A stretch of DNA of 22,955 bases, taken from IMG/VR virus record IMGVR_UViG_2541047790_000011; one strand, written 5' to 3'. Position numbers and translations under genes: made by a program. This document shows, piece after piece, positions 11,189 to 22,955 of the stretch (position 1 is the first letter of the stretch; every line of letters begins with the position of its first letter). Below the pieces are notes generated by a model. It saw only the letters and a program-made list of their open reading frames with translations, was not told the origin of the DNA and searched no databases. Source of the DNA: a virus (taxonomy: Duplodnaviria; Heunggongvirae; Uroviricota; Caudoviricetes).

Positions 11189-11545
11189 ATGGCAAGACCA
11201 CCGAAAGCCCCCGCCTACCTGGATGATATCGCCGTGAAGCAGTGGCGGGAAAAATCGCGGCAGCTTGCGGAACGGGGAGACCTGACCCCCGCCGACTGGA
11301 GCAATCTGGAACTGTATTGCGTCAACTACTCCATTTACCGGAAAGCCGTTGCAGACCTTGCGGCGCGCGGGTTCAGCATTGTTAACAGTCAGGGCGGCGA
11401 GAGCAGAAACCCCGCATTAAGCGCAAAATCCGACGCTGAAAGAGTGATGATAAAAATGGCCTCCTTGCTCGGTTTTGACCCGATAAGCCGCCGTAAAAAT
11501 CCACCGGAAACAGAAGAAGAGGACGAGCTTGACCGCCTGGAATAA
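11189..11545 (+). CDS. Terminase small subunit (P27-like)
   Basis: 118-aa product whose pattern (W---L-ERGDLTPAD---LELYCV-YS-YRKA ... acidic C-terminus) resembles P27-family small terminases; immediately precedes the large terminase. Confidence 0.75.
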   Translation: MARPPKAPAYLDDIAVKQWREKSRQLAERGDLTPADWSNLELYCVNYSIYRKAVADLAARGFSIVNSQGGESRNPALSAKSDAERVMIKMASLLGFDPISRRKNPPETEEEDELDRLE

Positions 11546-13190
11546 GTACGCAGAAGACGTAAAAACGGGCAAAATTCCGGCCTGTAAACGGCTGAAACAG
11601 GCCGTTAAACGGTACTTTTCGGACCTTGAAAGCCCCCTTTACACGTTCGATCGTGAGGTTGTGGAGCGGTTTATTGCCTTTTCCAGGGTGTGCGCGCACG
11701 TAAAAGGGCCGATGCGTGGCAGACCCATTGAGCTGGAGCCGTGGCAGCAGTTCGCCTTTGCGTGCATCCTCGGCTTTAAGGTTAAGGCCACCGGACGGCG
11801 CAAATACACGAGCGCCTTTATCGAAGTGCCGCGCAAAAATGCGAAATCCACGACCGCCGCGATTCTGGCTAACTGGTTTCTGATTATGGAGAACGGTCAG
11901 CAGGATATCTACACCGCAGCGGTGAGCCGTGACCAGGCGCGGATCGTCTTTGATGATGCGCGTCAGATGTGCCTTTTATCCCGACCGTTACGCAGGCGGG
12001 TGAATATTCAGGCGCATAAGGTGATACACCCGAAAACCAACAGCCTGTTAAAGCCACTGGCAGCAAAAGCGGCAACCATTGAGGGGACAAACCCGAGTCT
12101 TGCCATTGTGGATGAATATCACCTGCACCCAGACAACGGGGTTTATTCCGCACTTGATATGGGGATGGGCGCACGTCCCGAAGGGCTGTTATTTGCCATT
12201 ACCACATCGGGCAGTAACGTCGTTTCAGCCTGTAAGCAGCACTATGATTATTGCTGCCAGATCCTGGACGGCGAAGAGGTCAACGATTCAATTTTTGTAC
12301 TGATTTACGAACTGGACGACGAAAACGAGGTTGATGATCCGGCGATGTGGATAAAGGCTAACCCTAACATCGATGTTTCCGTCGATCGTGAAAAACTGGC
12401 CTCAACCATCCAGAAAGCGCGGGGTATTCCGTCGCAATGGGTGGAAATGCTCACCAAGCGATTCAATATCTGGTGTCAGGGGGCTACGCCGTGGATGGGT
12501 AACGGTGCATGGGCGGAGTGTGCCGGAACGTTCGCGGAGGCGGATTTATACGGGCAGGAGTGCTACGCGGGGCTGGACTTATCATCAACCAGCGATATTT
12601 CCAGCGTGTGCTATGCCTTCCCGGTCGGTAAAAAGATTATGCTGGTTTCCCGTCACTATCTGCCGGAATTTCAGCTACAGAATCCCGCCAATAAAAACCG
12701 CGCCATCTATCGCCAGTGGGTAAAGGCGGGCTGGATACGCACAACACCGGGTGACTGCATTGATTATGACCGTATCCGTGATGACATCATGGCGGATGCA
12801 GAGAATTTCAATATCAGGCTGGTGGGCTTCGATACATGGAACGCCACGCACCTGAGGACGCAGTTACAGGGCGCAGGATTTGAGGTGGAGCCGTTCCCGC
12901 AAACCTACCTCAGATTCAGTCCGGCGGCGAAATCGTTCGAAGTTTTTGTTAACCGGAAGGTGATTGTGCATCGTGGTGATCCGGTGCTGGCCTGGTCAAT
13001 GAGTAATGTTGTGATGCAGAGTGACGCGAACGCCAATATCAAGCCGAACAAGAAAAAATCATCCAACAAGATAGACCCGAGCGTTGCGGCGCTGATGGCG
13101 TTTGGCACATTCCAGGCAGAGCACGAGGACTTTGCATTCGATATGAGCGACAGCCACAAAGAGCGGCTTGCGGCGTTTGATGGGGTATGA
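11529..13190 (+). CDS. Terminase large subunit
   Basis: 553-aa product with an N-terminus typical of Terminase_1-family large subunits (TAWNKYAEDVKTGKIPACK), an ATPase region and a C-terminal nuclease region. The only in-frame start near the N-terminus is TTG at 11529, overlapping terS; the start codon is uncertain. Confidence 0.85.
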   Translation: MTAWNKYAEDVKTGKIPACKRLKQAVKRYFSDLESPLYTFDREVVERFIAFSRVCAHVKGPMRGRPIELEPWQQFAFACILGFKVKATGRRKYTSAFIEVPRKNAKSTTAAILANWFLIMENGQQDIYTAAVSRDQARIVFDDARQMCLLSRPLRRRVNIQAHKVIHPKTNSLLKPLAAKAATIEGTNPSLAIVDEYHLHPDNGVYSALDMGMGARPEGLLFAITTSGSNVVSACKQHYDYCCQILDGEEVNDSIFVLIYELDDENEVDDPAMWIKANPNIDVSVDREKLASTIQKARGIPSQWVEMLTKRFNIWCQGATPWMGNGAWAECAGTFAEADLYGQECYAGLDLSSTSDISSVCYAFPVGKKIMLVSRHYLPEFQLQNPANKNRAIYRQWVKAGWIRTTPGDCIDYDRIRDDIMADAENFNIRLVGFDTWNATHLRTQLQGAGFEVEPFPQTYLRFSPAAKSFEVFVNRKVIVHRGDPVLAWSMSNVVMQSDANANIKPNKKKSSNKIDPSVAALMAFGTFQAEHEDFAFDMSDSHKERLAAFDGV

Positions 13191-13628: not shown

Positions 13629-14406
13629 AAAAAGACGGTTTAACCATCCATTAAAAATCGACGTGATTTTGTGCTTTCCGTATGAGGTGGCCAGCGTCAT
13701 TTTTTAGTGAGAAATTCTGGTCAGGGGCGTTGGCTGAATGGTTATTTTATCGTGCCCATGCACAGGGAGGGGGCGGGTAAAATCTCTGGAGGTGATGCCT
13801 GTCAGGACCGCCGCCTGACCCTTCCTCACATCGCCGCAGGTTCGAAAACTTTTTTTGTGTCAGGTGCGCACGGAATTGATAGATAAAACCTATATTAAAA
13901 AATCACGGAAGCCGTGCCATTGCTGGAGCAGTCAAAAATTCCACATCTCACGGCAGGCAAAAAAAGCGAATTTTGGGCCAGTTGAGGATAAAAAAGGGCT
14001 CACTAGTTTTGCACATCCTGGTATCGGGGTCGTCAGCCTCCCGCCAGTAACTAGGTAACTAATCACGCTGGTGGGCATGATGCCGATGCCGGGATCTCGG
14101 TATCGGTTTATCTGTGATCATCCACCAGCTTGATGACAGATAACAGGGAGTCATAACGGTTAAAGCGTGTTGATCTTTGTTCGTGGTTGTTCGATATTGT
14201 TCGTAAAGCGGTGTAGTTAATGGTGTAGTTAATTTCGCTGTTTTTGACGAGCTTATCATTTGCAACGCAATGAAAAACAAAGACTAATTAACAAAATGCT
14301 ATAAATGATAGTTATCTATCATGTGGAGTAGATTGGTCAGGCAAATAAGCTCTTGTCAGCGGCAGGGCGTTCTGCCGATAACCGTAACCGAAGATGATAA
14401 CTGACA

Positions 14407-14727
14407 ATGGGTAAAACGAACGACTGGCTGGACTTTGATCAACTGGCGGAAGAAAAAGTTCGCGACGCGCTAAAACCGCCATCTATGTATAAAGTGATAT
14501 TAGTCAATGATGATTATACTCCGATGGAGTTTGTTATTGACGTGTTACAAAAATTCTTTTCTTATGATGTAGAACGTGCAACGCAATTGATGCTCGCTGT
14601 TCACTACCAGGGGAAGGCCATTTGCGGAGTCTTTACCGCTGAGGTTGCAGAAACCAAAGTGGCGATGGTGAACAAGTACGCGAGGGAGAATGAGCATCCA
14701 TTGCTGTGTACGCTAGAAAAAGCCTGA
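14407..14727 (+). CDS. clpS: ATP-dependent Clp protease adaptor ClpS
   Basis: 106-aa product [43 protein letters not shown] matches E. coli ClpS as recalled; immediately upstream of clpA. Confidence 0.95.
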
Positions 14728-14757
14728 ATGCAGGCATAAAAATTGGGGGAGGTGCCT

Positions 14758-17034
14758 ATGCTCAATCAAGAACTGGAACTCAGTTTAAATATGGCTTTCG
14801 CCAGAGCGCGCGAGCACCGTCATGAGTTTATGACCGTCGAGCACTTGTTACTGGCGCTGCTCAGTAACCCATCTGCCCGGGAGGCGCTGGAAGCGTGTTC
14901 TGTAGATTTGGTTGCGCTCCGTCAGGAACTGGAAGCCTTTATTGAACAAACCACACCCGTTCTGCCTGCCAGTGAAGAGGAGCGCGACACACAGCCGACG
15001 TTGAGTTTTCAGCGTGTACTGCAACGTGCGGTCTTCCATGTCCAGTCCTCCGGTCGCAATGAGGTTACCGGTGCAAACGTTCTGGTCGCTATCTTTAGCG
15101 AACAGGAGTCGCAGGCGGCATATCTGTTGCGCAAACATGAAGTCAGCCGTCTCGATGTGGTGAACTTTATCTCTCATGGCACGCGTAAAGACGAGCCGAC
15201 ACAGTCTTCTGATCCTGGCAGCCAGCCAAACAGCGAAGAACAAGCTGGTGGGGAGGAACGTATGGAGAATTTCACGACGAACCTGAATCAGCTTGCGCGA
15301 GTGGGCGGAATCGACCCACTAATTGGTCGTGAGAAGGAGCTGGAGCGTGCTATTCAGGTTCTCTGCCGTCGCCGTAAAAACAACCCGCTGCTGGTGGGGG
15401 AGTCTGGTGTCGGTAAAACCGCGATTGCGGAGGGGCTTGCATGGCGAATTGTTCAGGGCGATGTGCCGGAAGTGATGGCTGACTGTACGATTTACTCTCT
15501 CGATATCGGTTCCCTGTTAGCGGGCACAAAATATCGCGGCGACTTTGAAAAACGTTTTAAAGCGTTGCTCAAGCAGCTGGAGCAGGACACTAACAGCATC
15601 CTGTTTATTGATGAGATCCACACCATTATCGGTGCGGGTGCAGCGTCTGGTGGCCAGGTCGATGCGGCTAACCTGATTAAACCGTTGCTCTCCAGCGGTA
15701 AAATCCGCGTAATTGGTTCGACAACCTATCAGGAGTTCAGCAACATTTTCGAGAAAGACCGTGCTCTGGCGCGTCGCTTCCAGAAAATTGATATTACTGA
15801 ACCGTCAATCGAAGAAACTGTTCAAATCATCAATGGCCTGAAACCGAAGTATGAAGCGCACCACGACGTGCGTTATACCGCAAAAGCGGTGCGTGCGGCG
15901 GTAGAGCTGGCGGTGAAATACATTAACGATCGTCATCTGCCGGATAAAGCGATTGATGTTATCGACGAAGCGGGCGCTCGCGCACGTCTGATGCCGGTAA
16001 GCAAACGCAAGAAAACCGTTAATGTGGCGGATATTGAATCCGTGGTGGCCCGTATTGCACGCATTCCAGAGAAGAGTGTTTCTCAGAGTGACCGCGATAC
16101 CCTGAAAAACCTCGGCGATCGCCTGAAAATGCTGGTCTTCGGTCAGGATAAAGCCATTGAGGCGCTGACTGAAGCCATTAAGATGGCGCGTGCAGGTTTA
16201 GGTCACGAACATAAACCGGTCGGTTCGTTCCTGTTTGCCGGCCCTACTGGGGTCGGGAAAACAGAGGTGACGGTACAGCTTTCGAAAGCGTTGGGCATTG
16301 AGCTTCTGCGCTTTGATATGTCCGAGTATATGGAACGCCATACCGTCAGCCGTCTGATTGGTGCGCCTCCGGGATACGTTGGTTTTGATCAGGGCGGTTT
16401 GCTGACTGATGCGGTCATCAAGCATCCACATGCGGTGCTGCTGCTGGACGAAATCGAGAAAGCGCACCCGGACGTGTTCAATATTCTGTTGCAGGTGATG
16501 GATAACGGTACGCTGACCGATAACAACGGACGCAAAGCGGACTTCCGTAACGTGGTGCTGGTGATGACCACTAATGCCGGGGTACGGGAAACTGAGCGCA
16601 AATCCATTGGTCTTATCCACCAGGATAACAGCACCGATGCGATGGAAGAGATCAAGAAGATCTTTACACCGGAATTCCGTAACCGTCTCGACAACATTAT
16701 CTGGTTCGATCATCTGTCAACCGACGTGATCCATCAGGTGGTGGATAAATTCATCGTCGAGTTGCAGGTTCAGTTGGATCAGAAAGGTGTTTCTCTGGAA
16801 GTGAGCCAGGAAGCGCGTAACTGGCTGGCCGAGAAAGGTTACGACCGGGCAATGGGCGCACGTCCGATGGCGCGTGTCATCCAGGACAACCTGAAAAAAC
16901 CGCTCGCCAACGAACTGCTGTTTGGTTCGCTGGTGGACGGCGGTCAGGTCACCGTCGCGCTGGATAAAGAGAAAAATGAGCTGACTTACGGATTCCAGAG
17001 TGCACAAAAGCACAAGGCGGAAGCAGCGCATTAA
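14758..17034 (+). CDS. clpA: ATP-dependent Clp protease ATP-binding subunit ClpA
   Basis: 758 aa from [24 protein letters not shown], with two AAA+ modules (Walker A GESGVGKT and GPTGVGKT). GGGGGAGG precedes the ATG at 14758; the ORF track start at 14743 is 5 codons upstream. Confidence 0.95.
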
Positions 17035-17057
17035 TCTGATTGTCTGGTAGGTTGGTG

Positions 17058-17096
17058 AAGTCCGTAATCTCGTCAGGGGTTACGGACTTTTTATTT
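17058..17096 (+). terminator. Rho-independent terminator of clpA
   Basis: Stem aagtccgtaa (17059-17068) / ttacggactt (17080-17089), followed by a T-run. Confidence 0.6.
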
Positions 17097-17246
17097 ATGG
17101 GGGGAGGAGGTTCAGACCCTTTTTTTGATGATGATGGTAAGTTATTGATAATTAGTGCTGCGGGTAGGTAAGGATAAAAAAGGGTGGCAGCAGGAGATTG
17201 AGATGGTTTTGCTTTATTAACAACGGGCTAAACGTGTAGTATTTGA

Positions 17247-17334
17247 GTTCACTGCCGTACAGGCAGCTTAGAAATTGCCGCGGATCCTGTCTGCCAATAA
17301 TGACAAGTTCACTGCCGTACAGGCAGATAAAATG
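17247..17334 (+). CRISPR. Orphan type I-F CRISPR remnant (two repeats, one spacer)
   Basis: 28-nt repeat GTTCACTGCCGTACAGGCAGCTTAGAAA at 17247-17274, 32-nt spacer ttgccgcggatcctgtctgccaataatgacaa at 17275-17306, and a second repeat at 17307-17334 identical over the first 20 nt but degenerate in the last 8 (ATAAAATG). Repeat matches the type I-F consensus from memory. No cas genes in the window. Confidence 0.7.
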
Positions 17335-17336
17335 CG

Positions 17337-17364
17337 AAAAAAAAGCCCGTACTTTCGTACGAGC
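17337..17364 (-). terminator. Rho-independent terminator of serW
   Basis: On the minus strand: GCUCGUAC-GAAA-GUACGGGC hairpin followed by eight U, directly 3' of the tRNA. Confidence 0.55.
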
Positions 17365-17377
17365 TCTTCTTTAAATA

Positions 17378-17465
17378 TGGCGGTGAGGGGGGGATTCGAA
17401 CCCCCGATACGTTGCCGTATACACACTTTCCAGGCGTGCTCCTTCAGCCACTCGGACACCTCACC
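17378..17465 (-). tRNA. serW: tRNA-Ser (anticodon GGA)
   Basis: Reverse complement reads GGTGAGGTGTCCGAGTGGCTGAAGGAGCACGCCTGGAAAGTGTGTATACGGCAACGTATCGGGGGTTCGAATCCCCCCCTCACCGCCA: 88 nt with long variable arm, GGTTCGAATCC T-loop, anticodon GGA and encoded CCA. Confidence 0.93.
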
Positions 17466-17830
17466 AAATTGTTTTTTTGCCTGACCTCATGGGGGGCAAC
17501 GGGGCGCTACTATAGGGAGTTGGAATAAAACGGTCAAGAAGAATTTTTATGATAATTATTGTTTGCTCATACTGTAAACAAGTTGTGCAGTATATCTACA
17601 TCTGATGCGCCGCGCGATAAATAAGCCGCAATCCGTGAGATAAATGGACACAGTGCGGCTTTTCAGATACGGAAAAGGAATTACAGATTATCAGTCGTAA
17701 GCAACCCACGCTTACTGGCAAGGATGGTTTACAATGCTGAAAGCGCCTCCCGGCAATACCGCCAATCATCACTCAAACAGAAAAAATTATTGCTCATGGT
17801 TCACTCCGGTAATGAATCGTTTTACAGGCG

Positions 17831-18424
17831 TCATTCGGTCATGGAAAGATTGCTGATTTCGGTAATCCCGGCAATTTCCTCGCTGACGGATTTCAGTTCG
17901 ATTTCCAGCTTGGTGCGTTCGTTGACCAGCGCAGCTACGGTCTTACGGCGGTCTGCCAGTGACGGAAGGTTGTCATTGCCCCACGCCACGCTTTTATCCT
18001 TTTTGAGCGCTTCGGTCAGGCGGGTGGCGACCACATCCGGGAAGAAAAAGCATAACTTACGCATAACCGTCATCCCGACATCAGCCAGGGGGACATTCCC
18101 GCTCAGTCCCACCAGACGGAACAGACCAGAAATATCACCATTCTCATTTTCCAGATTACCCCAGCGTTCGGCGTTCCCTTCACTGCCGGAACCGTTGCAA
18201 AGAGCAAGCTTGAATGACTGATATTCTTCCTGCCCGAATCGCTCAATATATTCAGGAATAAAGGAACAGTAATCATTAAGCGATAATGGCATATCCTGTA
18301 ATGTGGTTATTTCACTGTTAATCTCTCCAATTCGGCGGGAGAGCTTTTCTTTCTGCTCATTCAGGGAGGCAAGATTATTTTTAACGGCGTTCAGTGCTTC
18401 GATAAGGGAAATAACAGGTTTCAT
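17831..18424 (-). CDS. Hypothetical protein (third gene of Mor-headed operon)
   Basis: 197 aa from MKPVISLIEALNAVKNNL; the start lies 1 nt after the upstream gene's stop. Coiled-coil-like N- and C-terminal segments; no recognised family. Confidence 0.5.
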   Translation of the reverse strand: MKPVISLIEALNAVKNNLASLNEQKEKLSRRIGEINSEITTLQDMPLSLNDYCSFIPEYIERFGQEEYQSFKLALCNGSGSEGNAERWGNLENENGDISGLFRLVGLSGNVPLADVGMTVMRKLCFFFPDVVATRLTEALKKDKSVAWGNDNLPSLADRRKTVAALVNERTKLEIELKSVSEEIAGITEISNLSMTE

Positions 18425-18425
18425 T

Positions 18426-19040
18426 TTAATAACTCCAGATGAAAGGCGTGGTGAGGGCGAGCGCTTCAGAATAGGAGACATTGCAGGCTGCACTTACGTC
18501 CTTTATTAAAAGGTGCTGTGCTGCCCTCTGACTGTCTGCTATGCCGTCAAACTCTGAAAAATGAACGTGTGATTCATTGTGATAAAAGCAAACCGGGTAA
18601 CAGCTTTCCATAAATTCTACCTGCGCCAGTCCCTTTACTGCTGGAGGCTGTGAGCCGAGAAAACCGATATGCTGAAGATACCAGGCACCGATTCCTGCCG
18701 GGTTGTTCGCTTCGCCGGGTCTATAAAATGCCGCAGACACTTTCCTGTAACGCCCTGCGCGTACCAGTCCCAGCAGGGTTTCATCAGGCTTAACCAGCGC
18801 GAAAAGCCTGCCGTTTTTACTTATCAGCCCAGTTGTTTCACCATAAGATGGGCTGTTGCTGGCCGGATGTCCAATACACAGCGGCGCACCATAACCCGCA
18901 CGATGATAGCCGTTATAGGCTGCCGCCATGTTGTCGATATCCTCGTCGGAAAAGGCAATTTCCTGCCCAGCCATCGTGATATGCGTTCCCGCCCGGAATA
19001 TCTCGATAGTTTTCCAGTTGCCAATATCGATATCTTTCAT
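18426..19040 (-). CDS. Hypothetical protein (second gene of Mor-headed operon)
   Basis: 204-aa ORF tightly coupled to both neighbours. The N-terminus (W-TIEIFRAGTHI--AGQEI-FS-EDIDN-AAAYN ... PLCIGHP) loosely recalls Mu-like prophage protein I / DUF-type phage proteins; this is a weak, unverified impression. Confidence 0.5.
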   Translation of the reverse strand: MKDIDIGNWKTIEIFRAGTHITMAGQEIAFSDEDIDNMAAAYNGYHRAGYGAPLCIGHPASNSPSYGETTGLISKNGRLFALVKPDETLLGLVRAGRYRKVSAAFYRPGEANNPAGIGAWYLQHIGFLGSQPPAVKGLAQVEFMESCYPVCFYHNESHVHFSEFDGIADSQRAAQHLLIKDVSAACNVSYSEALALTTPFIWSY

Positions 19041-19041
19041 T

Positions 19042-19569
19042 TTAAATTACCCCATATTTCGCATCGCGCTGTATTTTATTTTTCTTGCGTTCGGCGGCTA
19101 TAATCTGATAAATACACTGAATGGAACGCTTGTATTTTTTTGATAGTTCAAAAATAGAGATACCCTGATAAAAATCAGCCAGTATTTTTGAGTTCCTGTC
19201 GAAAGTGTTTTTTGATGCGCCCATAGGGATATATATATTCCCCCTGAAAAATGTATTCCTGAGACATTCAGTGATGGCAGGAGAAAGTTTTTCGGCTTGC
19301 GAACAGAGGTAAGGTATGGTTCCTAATGTCTGCTCAATAGATTCAGTCAGCTCCTGTAGGAAGCGAACTGCCTTAGGTGCTCTTTCTCGGTGTTCAGCCA
19401 TATACCCCTGGCAGCCACCAAGGTTATCAGAGATACCCAACACAATATGATTAGCCGCACTGCAGGACTGTTGCCGTGAATACCCTTTGTTGATCAGAAA
19501 CACTTCTATAGCATCGCCCATTGCCCCCAAAGTATCGGATGAAGCATACAATCCTTCTCTTGTAATCAT
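19042..19569 (-). CDS. Mor-family transcriptional activator-like protein
   Basis: C-terminal region RGNIYIPMGASKNTFDRNSKILADFYQGISIFELSKKYKRSIQCIYQIIAAERKK parallels the Mu Mor/C activator HTH region (G-VYIP-G ... R---I---F-G-----L---Y------IY-I---RK). GAGGTG lies 5-6 nt upstream of the ATG at 19569; the ORF track GTG at 19575 is an alternative. Confidence 0.6.
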   Translation of the reverse strand: MITREGLYASSDTLGAMGDAIEVFLINKGYSRQQSCSAANHIVLGISDNLGGCQGYMAEHRERAPKAVRFLQELTESIEQTLGTIPYLCSQAEKLSPAITECLRNTFFRGNIYIPMGASKNTFDRNSKILADFYQGISIFELSKKYKRSIQCIYQIIAAERKKNKIQRDAKYGVI

Positions 19570-19809
19570 AATCACACCTCGTCAACGATAAATATGCGCA
19601 CATAAAGCCTTTATAAAGCTTTATGAGGTGCATTACTGGTGTCATTCCATGATGCACACCACCAACAACCAAAAACGCCTTACAGAGCATTTCAATGTGT
19701 GTTATTAATGTGGATTAAGAATATGGTTTTGGGGCGAGAATGTTTTTTAATGTACTTTAGATATGACGAAGCCCCTCAAAGGAGGGGCGAGGCGGAAAAC
19801 TATTTATAA

Positions 19810-20088
19810 CTATTCCTTACTCTCCTGATCAAGACGATTACCTATCAGGTTAATCATTGCCATTGCATCAGATAGCAGGATACTGTTAACAAGTGCTAAG
19901 GGCGTCTGTGTTGATTTATCATCAACGGCAACAGAAAGTTCATCATTCAGGCGACGAACGGCCTCAAGACGGCTAAAGGCGGCTTCCCATATTTCTGTAC
20001 TCGGGGCATCAGCATTAACAAACAAAACATCGTAAGACGTTCCCTGAGACTCATGAGGACAGGCTATGAAATTAGCAGTAGCTTTCAT
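19810..20088 (-). CDS. Hypothetical small acidic protein (second gene of 2-gene operon)
   Basis: 92-aa ORF; its start overlaps the upstream gene's stop (ATGA at 20085-20088). No recognised family. Confidence 0.5.
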   Translation of the reverse strand: MKATANFIACPHESQGTSYDVLFVNADAPSTEIWEAAFSRLEAVRRLNDELSVAVDDKSTQTPLALVNSILLSDAMAMINLIGNRLDQESKE

Positions 20089-20564
20089 TTTGCAGTCCTC
20101 CGGTTAATTATAAATTTATTATAAATTTCATAACTTGCGGCATTCAGTCCTGGACTGTATTTATCTGCCAGTGAACAGGCAATGAATTCTTCAATCGATT
20201 TAGTCAGTATATCAAGCTCAGTTGTTCCGGAATAACGCAAGGCCACTCGAAATAATTCTCGGCAGTATGTTTTTTTATGGTCAATATTTTGTAACTGCTG
20301 TTGCGGTATATCACGACGTTCAAATATATTAACAAATGCATTAAGCGGGAAGCTATGATTTGCCTGCGGATATTGCTCATAGGAAAACACCACAGTATTA
20401 CCGTTGCATTCTTTAACAATTGCATTCATACCGCTGTTAATTTCAATATACCACTCTCCTATACATGGAGGATTGATAGCTTCGCTCTGTGCCTTGATTA
20501 AAGGTAAGCGGATAGTATCCACTTGGTTTGTTGCAACTGAATCGTTAGACTTGTCGTTAGCCAT
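20085..20564 (-). CDS. Hypothetical protein (first gene of 2-gene operon)
   Basis: 159 aa from MANDKSNDSV with AGGA 8 nt upstream. AT-rich codon usage by eye. No recognised family. Confidence 0.55.
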   Translation of the reverse strand: MANDKSNDSVATNQVDTIRLPLIKAQSEAINPPCIGEWYIEINSGMNAIVKECNGNTVVFSYEQYPQANHSFPLNAFVNIFERRDIPQQQLQNIDHKKTYCRELFRVALRYSGTTELDILTKSIEEFIACSLADKYSPGLNAASYEIYNKFIINRRTAK

Positions 20565-20597
20565 GACTGTTATCCTACACATAACGGTTTTTGGTTA

Positions 20598-20701
20598 GGC
20601 CATAGCAAGTGCTCGCAACATTTGTTATGGCCGTTTCTTTGGCCCTTTCCCTGTGATAAGGTATAGACCTAACAAGTAAACACTAAGCCATAGGTCTATA
20701 C
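20598..20701. promoter_or_regulatory. Divergent promoter region with two inverted repeats (candidate operators)
   Basis: IR1: ggccatagcaa (20598-20608) / ttgttatggcc (20622-20632), one mismatch. IR2: gtatagacct (20661-20670) / aggtctatac (20692-20701), perfect, 21-bp spacer. Located between the minus-strand 2-gene operon and the plus-strand RHH gene. Confidence 0.35.
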
Positions 20702-20752
20702 ATGTCAACTATCTTGAGAGATAAAAGCCAAAAAGGGGCAGGGAAAGCCCCC

Positions 20753-20893
20753 ATGTTTAACGTTAGAATATCGCCAGATTTGAAAGAACAGTTTGAAATA
20801 CAAGCAAAAAAAGAAGGTGTTAGCTTGGGAAACTGGCTCAAGGAACTTGGCAGGGCGGAACTAAAACGTAAGGGGATCGAGCCGAAAGGGTGA
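20753..20893 (+). CDS. Ribbon-helix-helix (CopG/Arc/MetJ-like) DNA-binding protein
   Basis: 46 aa from MFNVRISPDLKEQFEIQAKKEGVSLGNWLKELGRAELKR: a beta-strand followed by two helices is the RHH signature. AGGGA lies about 9 nt upstream of this ATG. The ORF-track start at 20702 has no Shine-Dalgarno and abuts IR2. Confidence 0.55.
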   Translation: MFNVRISPDLKEQFEIQAKKEGVSLGNWLKELGRAELKRKGIEPKG

Positions 20894-20919
20894 TGTTTTA
20901 GTCTCCCTGTGTTTGATTA

Positions 20920-21753
20920 AAAGCGAAATCGCTTTCACATTTAAAGTTCAAGATAGCCAATGCCATCACCAAAGCGGACAGCGCTGTCCGCTTTTCATCA
21001 GTAAAAACCACATATTTACGCCAAAACGCTCAACGTTGAGCGCTACGTACCCCGGCAAAAGCGCAAGCGTCTGCGCTTTTGGTAACAAGCAATCAGCATT
21101 TAAATGCGGACAACGTTGACCGTTTTGAGGAATCAATGTCGGCTGAGCAAAAACGACAACGTTGTCGTTTTTAAAACGGCAAGCGCTTACCGTTTCAGAT
21201 TATCGAGGCGGTAAGAGTTTACCGTTTGGTGTCAATTATGTTCAATAAGCGAAAACGTTTTCGCATTTTCTCACCTAACGCGGCAAACCTTCTTTGTCCT
21301 AGATGGAAAAACGACAGCGCTGTCGTTTCTAATCCGGGGTTCCAAACCGCTCAGCGCTGAGCGGTTCTGTGGCTTTCTTACAATCCAAATCCGCCAACGT
21401 TGGCAGATTTGCAAATATCACATATGATTGATGGTCCCGAATCACAAATGTCCCAGCGCGGGGATATTTCAAGTAGTTCAATCATTTCATGCGCTGGCAG
21501 TCATCTCCAAAACTGCGAACGCCTGCCCTTTCAGTACAGTTTGGTAATATATATTGGTAAGCTTTACTTGTAGAAATATAAAACTCCAAAAGCGCCAGCG
21601 CTGGCGCTTTGTAAGGCCAGCAATATCATTCCCAGCGCTGGAATACTAAAAGGCGGATTCCTGCATCTTAATTTGAGATGGAATCTCATGGCAATCCAGT
21701 GTTAACGTAGGGTTTTAGCCAGTACTCACGACTTGAATATGCCAGCGCTGGCA
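20920..21753. repeat. Array of at least 15 sequence-diverse palindromes with shared architecture (A-run, CG-rich arms around a CAGCGCTG or CAACGTTG centre, T-run)
   Basis: Perfect palindromes read directly: 20971-20994 (24 nt), 21027-21042 (16), 21149-21172 (24), 21249-21264 (16), 21309-21328 (20), 21345-21366 (22), 21393-21404 (12), 21589-21610 (22), 21632-21641 (10), 21740-21753 (14). Near-perfect: 20920-20935, 21057-21080, 21107-21122, 21174-21195, 21209-21224. No convincing ORF covers the array. Confidence 0.6.
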
Positions 21754-21990
21754 CATTTGAAGTCTGGTAACATCAATAATCTAATGACACCTGATGTAAT
21801 TTTGAACCCTGAACTGGAATCAACCCCAAATTTAATGGCAACAGCTATCAGCCAGATTACTGATGAACGTGACCTGCTGAACCAATTACTTGACCAAGCA
21901 CAGATGGCCGATGCATTCGAGCAATTTTCCCGAACGGTTCGGACTTCTAAACTGGCTTTTGTGAAGGAAAACAAGGGCTTTGTTGAATAA
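21739..21990 (+). CDS. Hypothetical ORF whose 3' end runs into the IS903 terminal inverted repeat (possibly insertion-truncated)
   Basis: About 83 aa from ATG 21739 (MPALAHLKSG...); the last codons (GGC TTT GTT GAA TAA) are IS903 end sequence. The start codon sits inside the 14-bp palindrome 21740-21753. Coding status uncertain. Confidence 0.3.
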   Translation: MPALAHLKSGNINNLMTPDVILNPELESTPNLMATAISQITDERDLLNQLLDQAQMADAFEQFSRTVRTSKLAFVKENKGFVE

Positions 21991-22955
21991 ATCAGATTTC
22001 GGGTAAGTCTCCCCCGTAGCGGGTTGTGTTTTCAGGCAATACGCACGCTTTCAGGCATACCTGCTTTCGTCATTTTGTTCAGCGCTCGTACCAGGGCCAT
22101 AGCCTCTGCAACCTGACCATCGTAGTCACGCAGTGTCAGTGAACCTCCGAACAGCTGTTTTACCCGGTACATCGCCGTTTCCGCTATCGAGCGACGGTTA
22201 TAATCTGTTGTCCATTTCCACCGCGCATTACTCCCGGTCAGCCGCTGATTCGCAACAGCACGGTTACGGTCTGCATATTCACCGGGCCAGTAACCCGCGC
22301 CTTTTCGGGGCGGGATAAGCGCGCTGATTTTCTTACGCCGCAGTTCATCGTGACAGAGCCGGGTGTCGTAAGCGCCGTCTGCCGATGCTGCCCTGATTTT
22401 TCTGTGAGTCTGCCGGATAAGACCCGGGAAGGCTTCTGAGTCCGTCACATTGTTCAGCGACAGGTCTGCACAGATGATTTCATGTGTTTTGCTGTCAACT
22501 GCCAGATGCAACTTTCGCCATATACGACGGCGTTCTTTGCCGTGTTTTTTGACTTTCCATTCGCCTTCACCAAAGACCTTCAGCCCGGTGGAATCAATCA
22601 CCAGATGCGCGATTTCACCTCGGGTGAACGTTTTGAAACTGACATTAACCGACTTTGCGCGCTTGCTGACACTGGTGTAATCCGGGCAGCGCAACGGAAC
22701 ATTCATCAGTGTAAAAATGGAATCAATAAAACCCTGTGCAGCCCGCAGGGTCAACCTGAACACGCGTTTAATGACCAGAACGGTGGTGATGGCGAGATCA
22801 GAATAGCGCTGAGGTCTTCCCCGTGATGAAGGCGTTGCCGACTCATACCAGGCCTGAATAGCTTCATCATCCAGCCAGAAAGTTATGGAGCCACGGTTGA
22901 TGAGGGCTTTATTGTAGGTGGGCCAGTTGGTGATTTTGAACTTTTGCTTTGCCAC
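21976..22955 (-). mobile_element. IS903 (IS5 family), partial - runs off the right window edge
   Basis: Terminal inverted repeat GGCTTTGTTGAATAAATC begins at about 21976; the internal transposase is recognisable as IS903 from memory. The ~1.06-kb element would end beyond base 22955. Confidence 0.88.
22032..22955 (-). CDS. IS903 transposase
   Basis: 307-codon ORF starting MAKQKFKITNWPTYNKALINRGSITFWLDDEAIQAWYESATPSSRGRPQRYSDLAITTVLVIKRVFRLTLRAAQGF, near-identical to the IS903 transposase as recalled. Start codon (GTG in this frame) is at the very last bases of the window. Confidence 0.9.
   Translation of the reverse strand: MAKQKFKITNWPTYNKALINRGSITFWLDDEAIQAWYESATPSSRGRPQRYSDLAITTVLVIKRVFRLTLRAAQGFIDSIFTLMNVPLRCPDYTSVSKRAKSVNVSFKTFTRGEIAHLVIDSTGLKVFGEGEWKVKKHGKERRRIWRKLHLAVDSKTHEIICADLSLNNVTDSEAFPGLIRQTHRKIRAASADGAYDTRLCHDELRRKKISALIPPRKGAGYWPGEYADRNRAVANQRLTGSNARWKWTTDYNRRSIAETAMYRVKQLFGGSLTLRDYDGQVAEAMALVRALNKMTKAGMPESVRIA

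Follow-up and report, generated by a model that had tools for sequence, protein, structure and literature searches.

The interval between clpA and serW in the DNA analyzed here (a single stretch of 22,955 nt, hereafter the window) contains two short repeats around one spacer, and it raises the question of what a CRISPR array is doing in a region that carries no CRISPR-associated genes. The element can be identified with essential certainty: it is the anti-cas3f allele of the type I-F array that cas-less E. coli carry next to clpA, an 'orphan' array known as CRISPR3 in the work of Touchon & Rocha and as an orphan CRISPR4 array in that of the Mojica group. The window is part of an E. coli chromosome and was 99.97% identical over its full length to SaT040 (NZ_CP014495.1, 930809–953763). 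SK1144 was rejected as the source genome: its near-identical match was confined to window positions 14301–22955, and the whole window matched SaT040-type genomes.

The array occupies positions 17247–17334, and the two 28-nt repeats and the single 32-nt spacer announced there by the original prediction were exact in both coordinates and sequence. Repeat 1 (R1; 17247–17274, plus strand; GTTCACTGCCGTACAGGCAGCTTAGAAA) is a perfect type I-F repeat and the source of the 8-nt 5' handle CUUAGAAA. It is followed on the same strand by the anti-cas3f spacer (17275–17306; TTGCCGCGGATCCTGTCTGCCAATAATGACAA) and by the terminal repeat 2 (R2; 17307–17334; GTTCACTGCCGTACAGGCAGATAAAATG), in which the 20-nt Cas6f hairpin part is intact and the tail, ATAAAATG, is degenerate. 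The first 20 nt of the two repeats were identical and the last 8 nt agreed at 3 of 8 positions, as expected from the claim that the second repeat is a terminal one with a degenerate end. A repeat finder returned a 21-nt perfect direct repeat with a start-to-start spacing of exactly 60 nt. The 20-mer core of the repeat occurred in exactly two copies in the window with up to 3 mismatches allowed, compared to 0.00 copies expected from 100 shuffles.

The repeat family was confirmed by comparison with the Rfam model CRISPR-DR4 (RF01317). R1 scored 50.1 bits (E = 1.1e-10; gathering score 35) and covered 28 of 28 model positions, and its CUGCC/GGCAG stem showed the 5-bp stem and 5-nt loop that characterize this family. 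R2 reached 29.7 bits (E = 2e-4) and stayed under the gathering score because of its degenerate tail. Furthermore, R1 was identical to 'Repeat2' in Table 1 of PMC2886076, and the 60-nt period and 32-nt spacer of the window array correspond to the periodicity of 60 given for I-F arrays (PMC3506596). The type I-F assignment thus stood, since the repeat neither departed from the I-F consensus nor fell into another repeat family. In its repeat consensus, its spacer length and period and its homologous leader, the array is a type I-F array. It has no adjacent I-F cas operon, which makes it an orphan and leaves its repeat-family membership unaffected.

Cas6f/Csy4 cuts at the 3' base of the repeat hairpin. 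Under this cleavage rule, the predicted mature crRNA extends from 17267 to 17326 on the plus strand and comprises 60 nt, namely the 8-nt handle, the 32-nt spacer and the 20-nt hairpin; its production would need Cas6f supplied in trans. Judged by its sequence, the array is predicted to encode exactly one complete 60-nt crRNA unit, the canonical I-F crRNA size quoted in bioRxiv 10.1101/2024.10.29.618823. The tail of R2 lies past the Cas6f cleavage point and is therefore irrelevant for this crRNA. Folding of the transcript was uninformative on Cas6f substrates, as the minimum-free-energy structure paired both palindromic repeats with each other and did not form two local hairpins; the support for the Cas6f hairpin comes from the Rfam model and not from this folding.

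The placement of the array between clpA and serW was also correctly predicted. The stop codon of clpA lies at 17032–17034, and the array sits between the clpA terminator and serW. The terminator scan placed the intrinsic terminator hairpin of clpA at 17057–17090 on the plus strand, with a 15-pair stem followed by a T-run, which separates the array from clpA read-through. In cas-positive strains, the clpA-side I-F array has a leader homologous to the CRISPR leader of the window (17035–17246, plus strand). Over its 211 nt from the clpA stop to R1, 197 of 213 aligned positions (92.5%) were identical to positions 7024–7235 of the I-F-positive locus L001 and to the K-12 leader. Within the leader, a consensus scan detected a sigma-70 promoter-like site (TTGATG-16-GATAAT; 17125–17152, plus strand) with 9 of 12 matches, which is the putative promoter of the array. 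The scan returned 1 site compared to 0.6 expected, a count indistinguishable from chance and weak when taken alone; the -10 hexamer GATAAT was also present in the K-12 and I-F-positive leaders. On the other side, 3 nt past R2, the terminator scan found the serW terminator hairpin (17337–17372, minus strand; 16-pair stem) together with a shorter plus-strand hairpin at 17348–17361. The serW terminator hairpin probably ends the array transcript as well. serW itself, a tRNA-Ser(GGA) gene at 17378–17465 on the minus strand, was identified by ARAGORN, by Rfam (tRNA, 53.8 bits) and by the K-12 annotation, and forms the conserved right-hand boundary of the I-F locus.

The clpA-infA interval is the known site of I-F arrays in E. 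coli, as the original prediction stated: in the I-F-positive strain OkiPb01682 (L001) it is occupied by arrays and a cas operon in the order clpA, leader, 15-repeat array, cas1f, cas3f, csy1, csy2, csy3, cas6f, serW, leader, 10-repeat array and infA. In I-F-positive strains, cas6f ends about 110 nt before the serW tRNA. Homology of the window to L001 resumes at the serW terminator, immediately 3' of R2. Compared to the full clpA-side array of I-F-positive E. coli, the window array has the same repeat, position, 32-nt spacers and 60-nt period, and a leader of the identity given above. However, it lacks the six cas genes and the infA-side array, it holds one spacer versus about 9–22, and its terminal repeat ends in ATAAAATG instead of the TATTCACA of the cas-positive strain. 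A tblastn search of the window with the six I-F Cas proteins of an I-F-positive strain (Cas1f, Cas3f, Csy1–3 and Cas6f) gave only noise, with a best E-value of 0.2 that corresponded to the spacer itself, in agreement with the predicted absence of cas genes from the window. Likewise, the RefSeq annotation of the matching genomes, including the 99.97%-identical one, listed no I-F cas genes.

Two mobile regions flank this locus in the window. Positions 1 to about 13480, between yljB and clpS, hold a tail-less satellite-like element of about 13.5 kb, which begins with a tyrosine integrase (1–1239) and encodes an HTH regulator, Icd-like proteins, a primase, SSB, a major capsid protein, an HK97 prohead protease, a portal protein, a head-tail connector, an HNH endonuclease and small and large terminase subunits (the large subunit at 11529–13190), with no tail genes. 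Its gene content resembles that of capsid-forming PICI phage satellites, and no more than 17 of the 5,426 complete E. coli genomes contained at least 80% of the element. The second region, an island between serW and infA (17601–22955), runs past the window end and begins where K-12 homology breaks at about 17600; it contains several hypothetical genes, a Mor transcription-activator family gene, a HicB-family antitoxin and an IS5 transposase. Elsewhere, the serW-infA interval measures only about 250 nt in K-12 and harbors the second, infA-side CRISPR array in I-F-positive strains. None of the 23 spacers of the I-F-positive strain matched the mobile elements of the window, each differing at 11 or more positions.

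The spacer matched at all positions (32/32) the coding strand of the cas2-3 fusion gene, cas3f, in OkiPb01682 (L001 12001–12032), where it covers codons 916–926 of 1,077. The protospacer is directly preceded by CC, with AACGCC followed immediately by TTGCCGCGG in the loci L001, L004 and L005. The E. coli I-F PAM is CC on the leader-proximal side of the spacer-identical strand, equal to GG on the target strand, and GGC, the trinucleotide at this cas3f site, supported interference in transformation assays (PMC3506596). Among the roughly 239–240 genomes with a cas3f target, 37 matched exactly, 201 had one mismatch (31/32) and 2 had two mismatches (30/32). In the inspected variants, the mismatches fell at position 29 (A to C, Asp925Ala) or at positions 21 and 29, all of them PAM-distal, and the CC PAM was conserved in 3 of 3 inspected target variants. 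Within the window, no second site with fewer than 12 mismatches to the spacer was found.

Across 5,426 complete E. coli genomes, the 32-mer was present in 914–915, in exactly one copy each. Array copies and target copies were told apart with a 152-nt query centered on the cas3f site, to which array genomes match over 32 nt only. By this measure, 239 genomes carried the 32-mer inside cas3f and 675 carried it as an array spacer. No genome had both the spacer and the cas3f target, compared to about 30 expected under independence, and this exclusion is partly structural and no independent proof of incompatibility, because a single chromosomal site holds, as alternative alleles, either the orphan array or the cas operon. 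Many of the spacer-carrying genomes are labelled O25b:H4-ST131, and the invariance of the spacer across the 675 genomes may reflect merely the heavy sampling of one clone.

The comparison with phages and plasmids that the original prediction recommended for the spacer returned no target; the informative match, which it had missed, was cas3f in other E. coli chromosomes. Among phages, only partial matches of up to 21 nt were found, which is chance level. Among the PLSDB plasmids, the sole full-length match, NZ_CP134387.1, was a chromosomal segment with the same orphan array. This record (L003; 'plasmid pMTY11352_3', 88,440 bp) was deposited as a circular non-mobilizable E. coli plasmid and contains at least 16 kb of core chromosomal genes, including ybjD, macAB, cspD, clpSA, infA, aat, cydCD, trxB, lrp and ftsK, as well as the orphan array itself. 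The record may represent a piece of the chromosome that was excised or amplified, or it may result from a faulty assembly. An E. coli-type Cas3f was not found on PLSDB plasmids, where the best match was a Photobacterium protein with 44.6% amino-acid identity.

To place the window allele among its relatives, nine cas-less alleles of the locus were compared, comprising the window, K-12 and seven sampled others. They contained 7 distinct spacers, 6 of which matched cas1f, cas3f (at four sites) or csy3, each behind CC. These CC-flanked matches lie on both strands, which shows that a genuine I-F adaptation machinery had acquired the spacers. The K-12 array has the same leader, a perfect first repeat and the same terminal tail and junction as the window; its spacer corresponds, with 3 mismatches, to a minus-strand site in cas1f that has a CC PAM. 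The K-12 spacer or near variants of it occurred in about 2,300 genomes, and the remaining matches lay inside cas1f. The terminal tail ATAAAATG and the junction with the serW terminator were common to 8 of the 9 alleles, and L013 has the tail in a more diverged repeat. In L011, two spacers from sites less than 100 bp apart in cas3f are adjacent in the array, a pattern expected of primed adaptation.

Several alleles showed further rearrangements. In the terminal repeat of K-12 MG1655 (L006 1314–1341; NC_000913.3, about 925813–925840), the 3' arm of the Cas6f hairpin reads GACAG instead of GGCAG (G to A), such that the terminal-repeat stem is mutated in K-12 and intact in the window. L015 (positions 349–376; NZ_CM142671.1) has a single hybrid repeat, with the canonical 20 nt joined to the tail ATAAAATG, and no spacer. 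It presumably arose by recombination between two repeats, and its existence means that the anti-cas spacer can be lost and is dispensable. In L013 (positions 348–830; NZ_CP173446.1), the anti-cas3f spacer is duplicated in tandem and accompanied by two more spacers, and the serW end is partially duplicated, with an insertion interrupting the duplication; a 'hypothetical protein' annotated across this array is probably spurious. In L010 (positions 481–615; NZ_CP063487.1) and L012, an insertion of about 180 nt separates the array from serW, and an RtT-like sRNA repeat is annotated there in L010.

Strain 536-type arrays, which are close relatives of the window allele, have one more spacer, GCACACGTCGAGCTGGTGGGGATTAATGCTGG, on the leader side of the anti-cas3f spacer (L009 376–407, NZ_CP195448.1; strain 536, NC_008253.1 939514–939545). 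It was a 31/32 match, shifted by 2 nt, to a spacer of the type I-E array beside iap (L017 599–632, NZ_CP074701.1), and the 2-nt shift puts the CC at the start of the I-E spacer at the I-F PAM position. The I-F cas operon, the plasmids and the phages contained no match to GCACACGTCGAGCTGGTGGGGATTAATGCTGG, and the I-E array spacer was the only match in the three collections searched. On the strength of this match, the cas-less arrays could hold a cross-system memory, in which I-F adaptation would have sampled I-E array DNA ('anti-CRISPR-locus' memory), and we consider this rather improbable. More ordinarily, each system would have sampled one and the same mobile-element site, with overlapping PAMs (AAG/CC), independently of the other, in which case the shared site would read AAG-CCGCACACGTCGAGCTGGTGGGGATTAATGCTGG. 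If the I-F machinery did sample the I-E array, the one-spacer allele of the window would either derive from a longer form by loss of the extra spacer or be a precursor into which that spacer was never inserted.

What the window array does at present is a separate question from its identity, and we consider it probable, from these sequence comparisons, the established biochemistry of I-F systems and the published work, that it serves as an anti-cas barrier to I-F systems. The array would be transcribed from its leader and would remain inert in a cas-less cell, which has no Cas6f or Csy proteins. If an I-F cas operon of the E. coli type came in on foreign DNA, its Cas6f would process the resident transcript, its Csy complex would load the resident crRNA, and its Cas2-3 would degrade the DNA that bears the newly arrived cas3f. 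Primed acquisition of more spacers would come next, and the lineage would thereby stay I-F-free. Touchon & Rocha put forward such an anti-cas model in 2010 (PMC2886076), and constitutive expression of orphan arrays has been reported (PMC8616872). According to the summaries given in PMC8616872 and PMC7145637, Almendros et al. (2016) found that native orphan arrays interfere with I-F cas plasmids and trigger primed adaptation.

At the sequence level, the window shows every feature of the anti-cas orphan family, namely the locus, the repeat, the leader, the terminal repeat, a cas-matching spacer, the PAM and the absence of cas genes. As described in the available accounts of the E. coli anti-cas orphan CRISPR4 arrays (Almendros, Guzman, Garcia-Martinez & Mojica 2016, Nat Microbiol 1:16081) and of the 'anti-CRISPR' CRISPR3 (PMC2886076), these arrays share with the window the species, the locus, the 28-nt repeat and the degenerate terminal repeat. 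They carry one to a few spacers against absent cognate I-F cas genes with an I-F PAM, as the window does against cas3f. Nothing substantive differs between them: the window represents the ST131-type anti-cas3f allele, and K-12 represents the anti-cas1f allele. The term 'remnant' used by the original prediction is therefore only partly appropriate. The array is indeed cas-less with a single spacer, but the term undersells a conserved leader, an intact R1, an intact Cas6f hairpin in R2 and a PAM-flanked match to cas3f. In one paper the cas-less state was argued to be ancestral and not reduced, and published work regards arrays of this kind as a functional device against cas genes (PMC2886076, PMC8616872). 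Against a barrier function, the sole natural target seen is the chromosomal allele, and homologous replacement by that allele would eliminate the array as well. In addition, the promoter-like site is a weak consensus match, and the spacer-less allele L015 exists.

The rival account with the best prospects, which we nevertheless regard as unlikely, holds that the array is a neutral scar of autoimmunity: a spacer against the cell's own cas3f was acquired, the ensuing self-targeting favored loss of the cas operon, and the mini-array was left by inertia and without a function today. PMC2886076 quotes this hypothesis from Diez-Villasenor et al. 2010. Normally only 2–5 kb separate the target gene from the array within the locus, which makes self-sampling the simplest source of the spacer, and the CC PAM implies uptake by I-F machinery that was once present. 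The spacer-less L015 and the hairpin-weakening G-to-A change of K-12 are consistent with decay, and the PLSDB plasmids included no mobile carrier of an E. coli-type I-F system. However, an identical terminal tail and serW junction in 8 of 9 alleles with different spacers argues against many independent deletions. The retained spacers are nearly all anti-cas, although recombination between repeats should erase them. Touchon & Rocha give three arguments for selection (PMC2886076), and experimental interference by native orphan arrays is reported in the account of PMC8616872. Moreover, a self-targeting origin and a present barrier function are not mutually exclusive.

A related comparison is offered by self-targeting spacers and autoimmunity with cas loss or island remodelling, as in the Pectobacterium I-F system (PMC3630108). 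There too, an I-F spacer is directed against a chromosome of the same species and spacer and target are incompatible. Unlike in Pectobacterium, the target of the window spacer is the cas machinery itself, which is absent from the host, and ongoing autoimmunity is therefore not expected in the window's host.

A second rival account would make the array a regulatory mini-CRISPR of the CreR/CreA type, whose crRNA-like RNA guides Cascade to repress a promoter through partial complementarity without cleavage. Both kinds of element share the two-repeat, one-spacer form, a degenerate second repeat, which is typical of these mini-arrays, and an RNA for Cascade/Csy loading. CreR/CreA elements are known for I-F loci (bioRxiv 10.1101/2023.03.10.532045, 10.1101/2024.10.29.618823), and a candidate exists in the cas3f-csy1 intergenic region of I-F-positive E. 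coli. However, bacterial CreA/CreR elements have pseudo-spacers of 23–27 nt (bioRxiv 10.1101/2024.10.29.618823), match promoters by their seed only, over about 11–14 nt, and repress within a cas-positive locus, whereas the window spacer has 32 nt, matches 32/32 inside a coding sequence and lies in a cas-less locus. Furthermore, R1 is a perfect canonical repeat, the region contains no Cas proteins to regulate, and the window offers no partial target, the best off-target site having 12 mismatches. A regulatory role is accordingly very improbable, and it was ruled out by the spacer length together with the full-length match.

The candidate in OkiPb01682 is itself a degenerate two-repeat mini-array with a 25-nt pseudo-spacer, located between cas3f and csy1 (L001 12495–12571, minus strand). 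Its putative target is a CC-flanked site at 12664–12679, about 120 nt away and upstream of csy1. The pseudo-spacer matches this site at positions 1–5, 7–11 and 13–14, with mismatches exactly at positions 6 and 12. This pattern suggests a CreR/CreA-type Cas-autoregulatory RNA of the kind already described for I-F loci.

Finally, there is next to no probability that the two direct repeats are a product of chance or belong to a different family (REP/BIME or tRNA-linked repeats). There are two copies only, and short two-copy families are often due to chance, but this reading was refuted by the CRISPR-DR4 match of R1 and the shuffle count of zero expected copies, and it is also opposed by the period of exactly 60 nt and by the identity of the repeat to that of the 15- and 10-repeat arrays that flank the complete I-F cas operon at the same locus.

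The element is thus already known: its prediction dates from 2010 and the experimental report from 2016. What the window contributes is a further instance and updated counts for the anti-cas3f allele: 675 complete genomes with the spacer, 239 with the target and 0 with both, of 5,426. The array is a cas-less genome's memory of nothing but CRISPR machinery, and as an anti-cas barrier it would turn an incoming I-F system on its own genes. This has been proposed as the reason why most E. coli lineages stay without an active I-F system and hence open to plasmids, including the multidrug-resistant ST131-type background that the window resembles.
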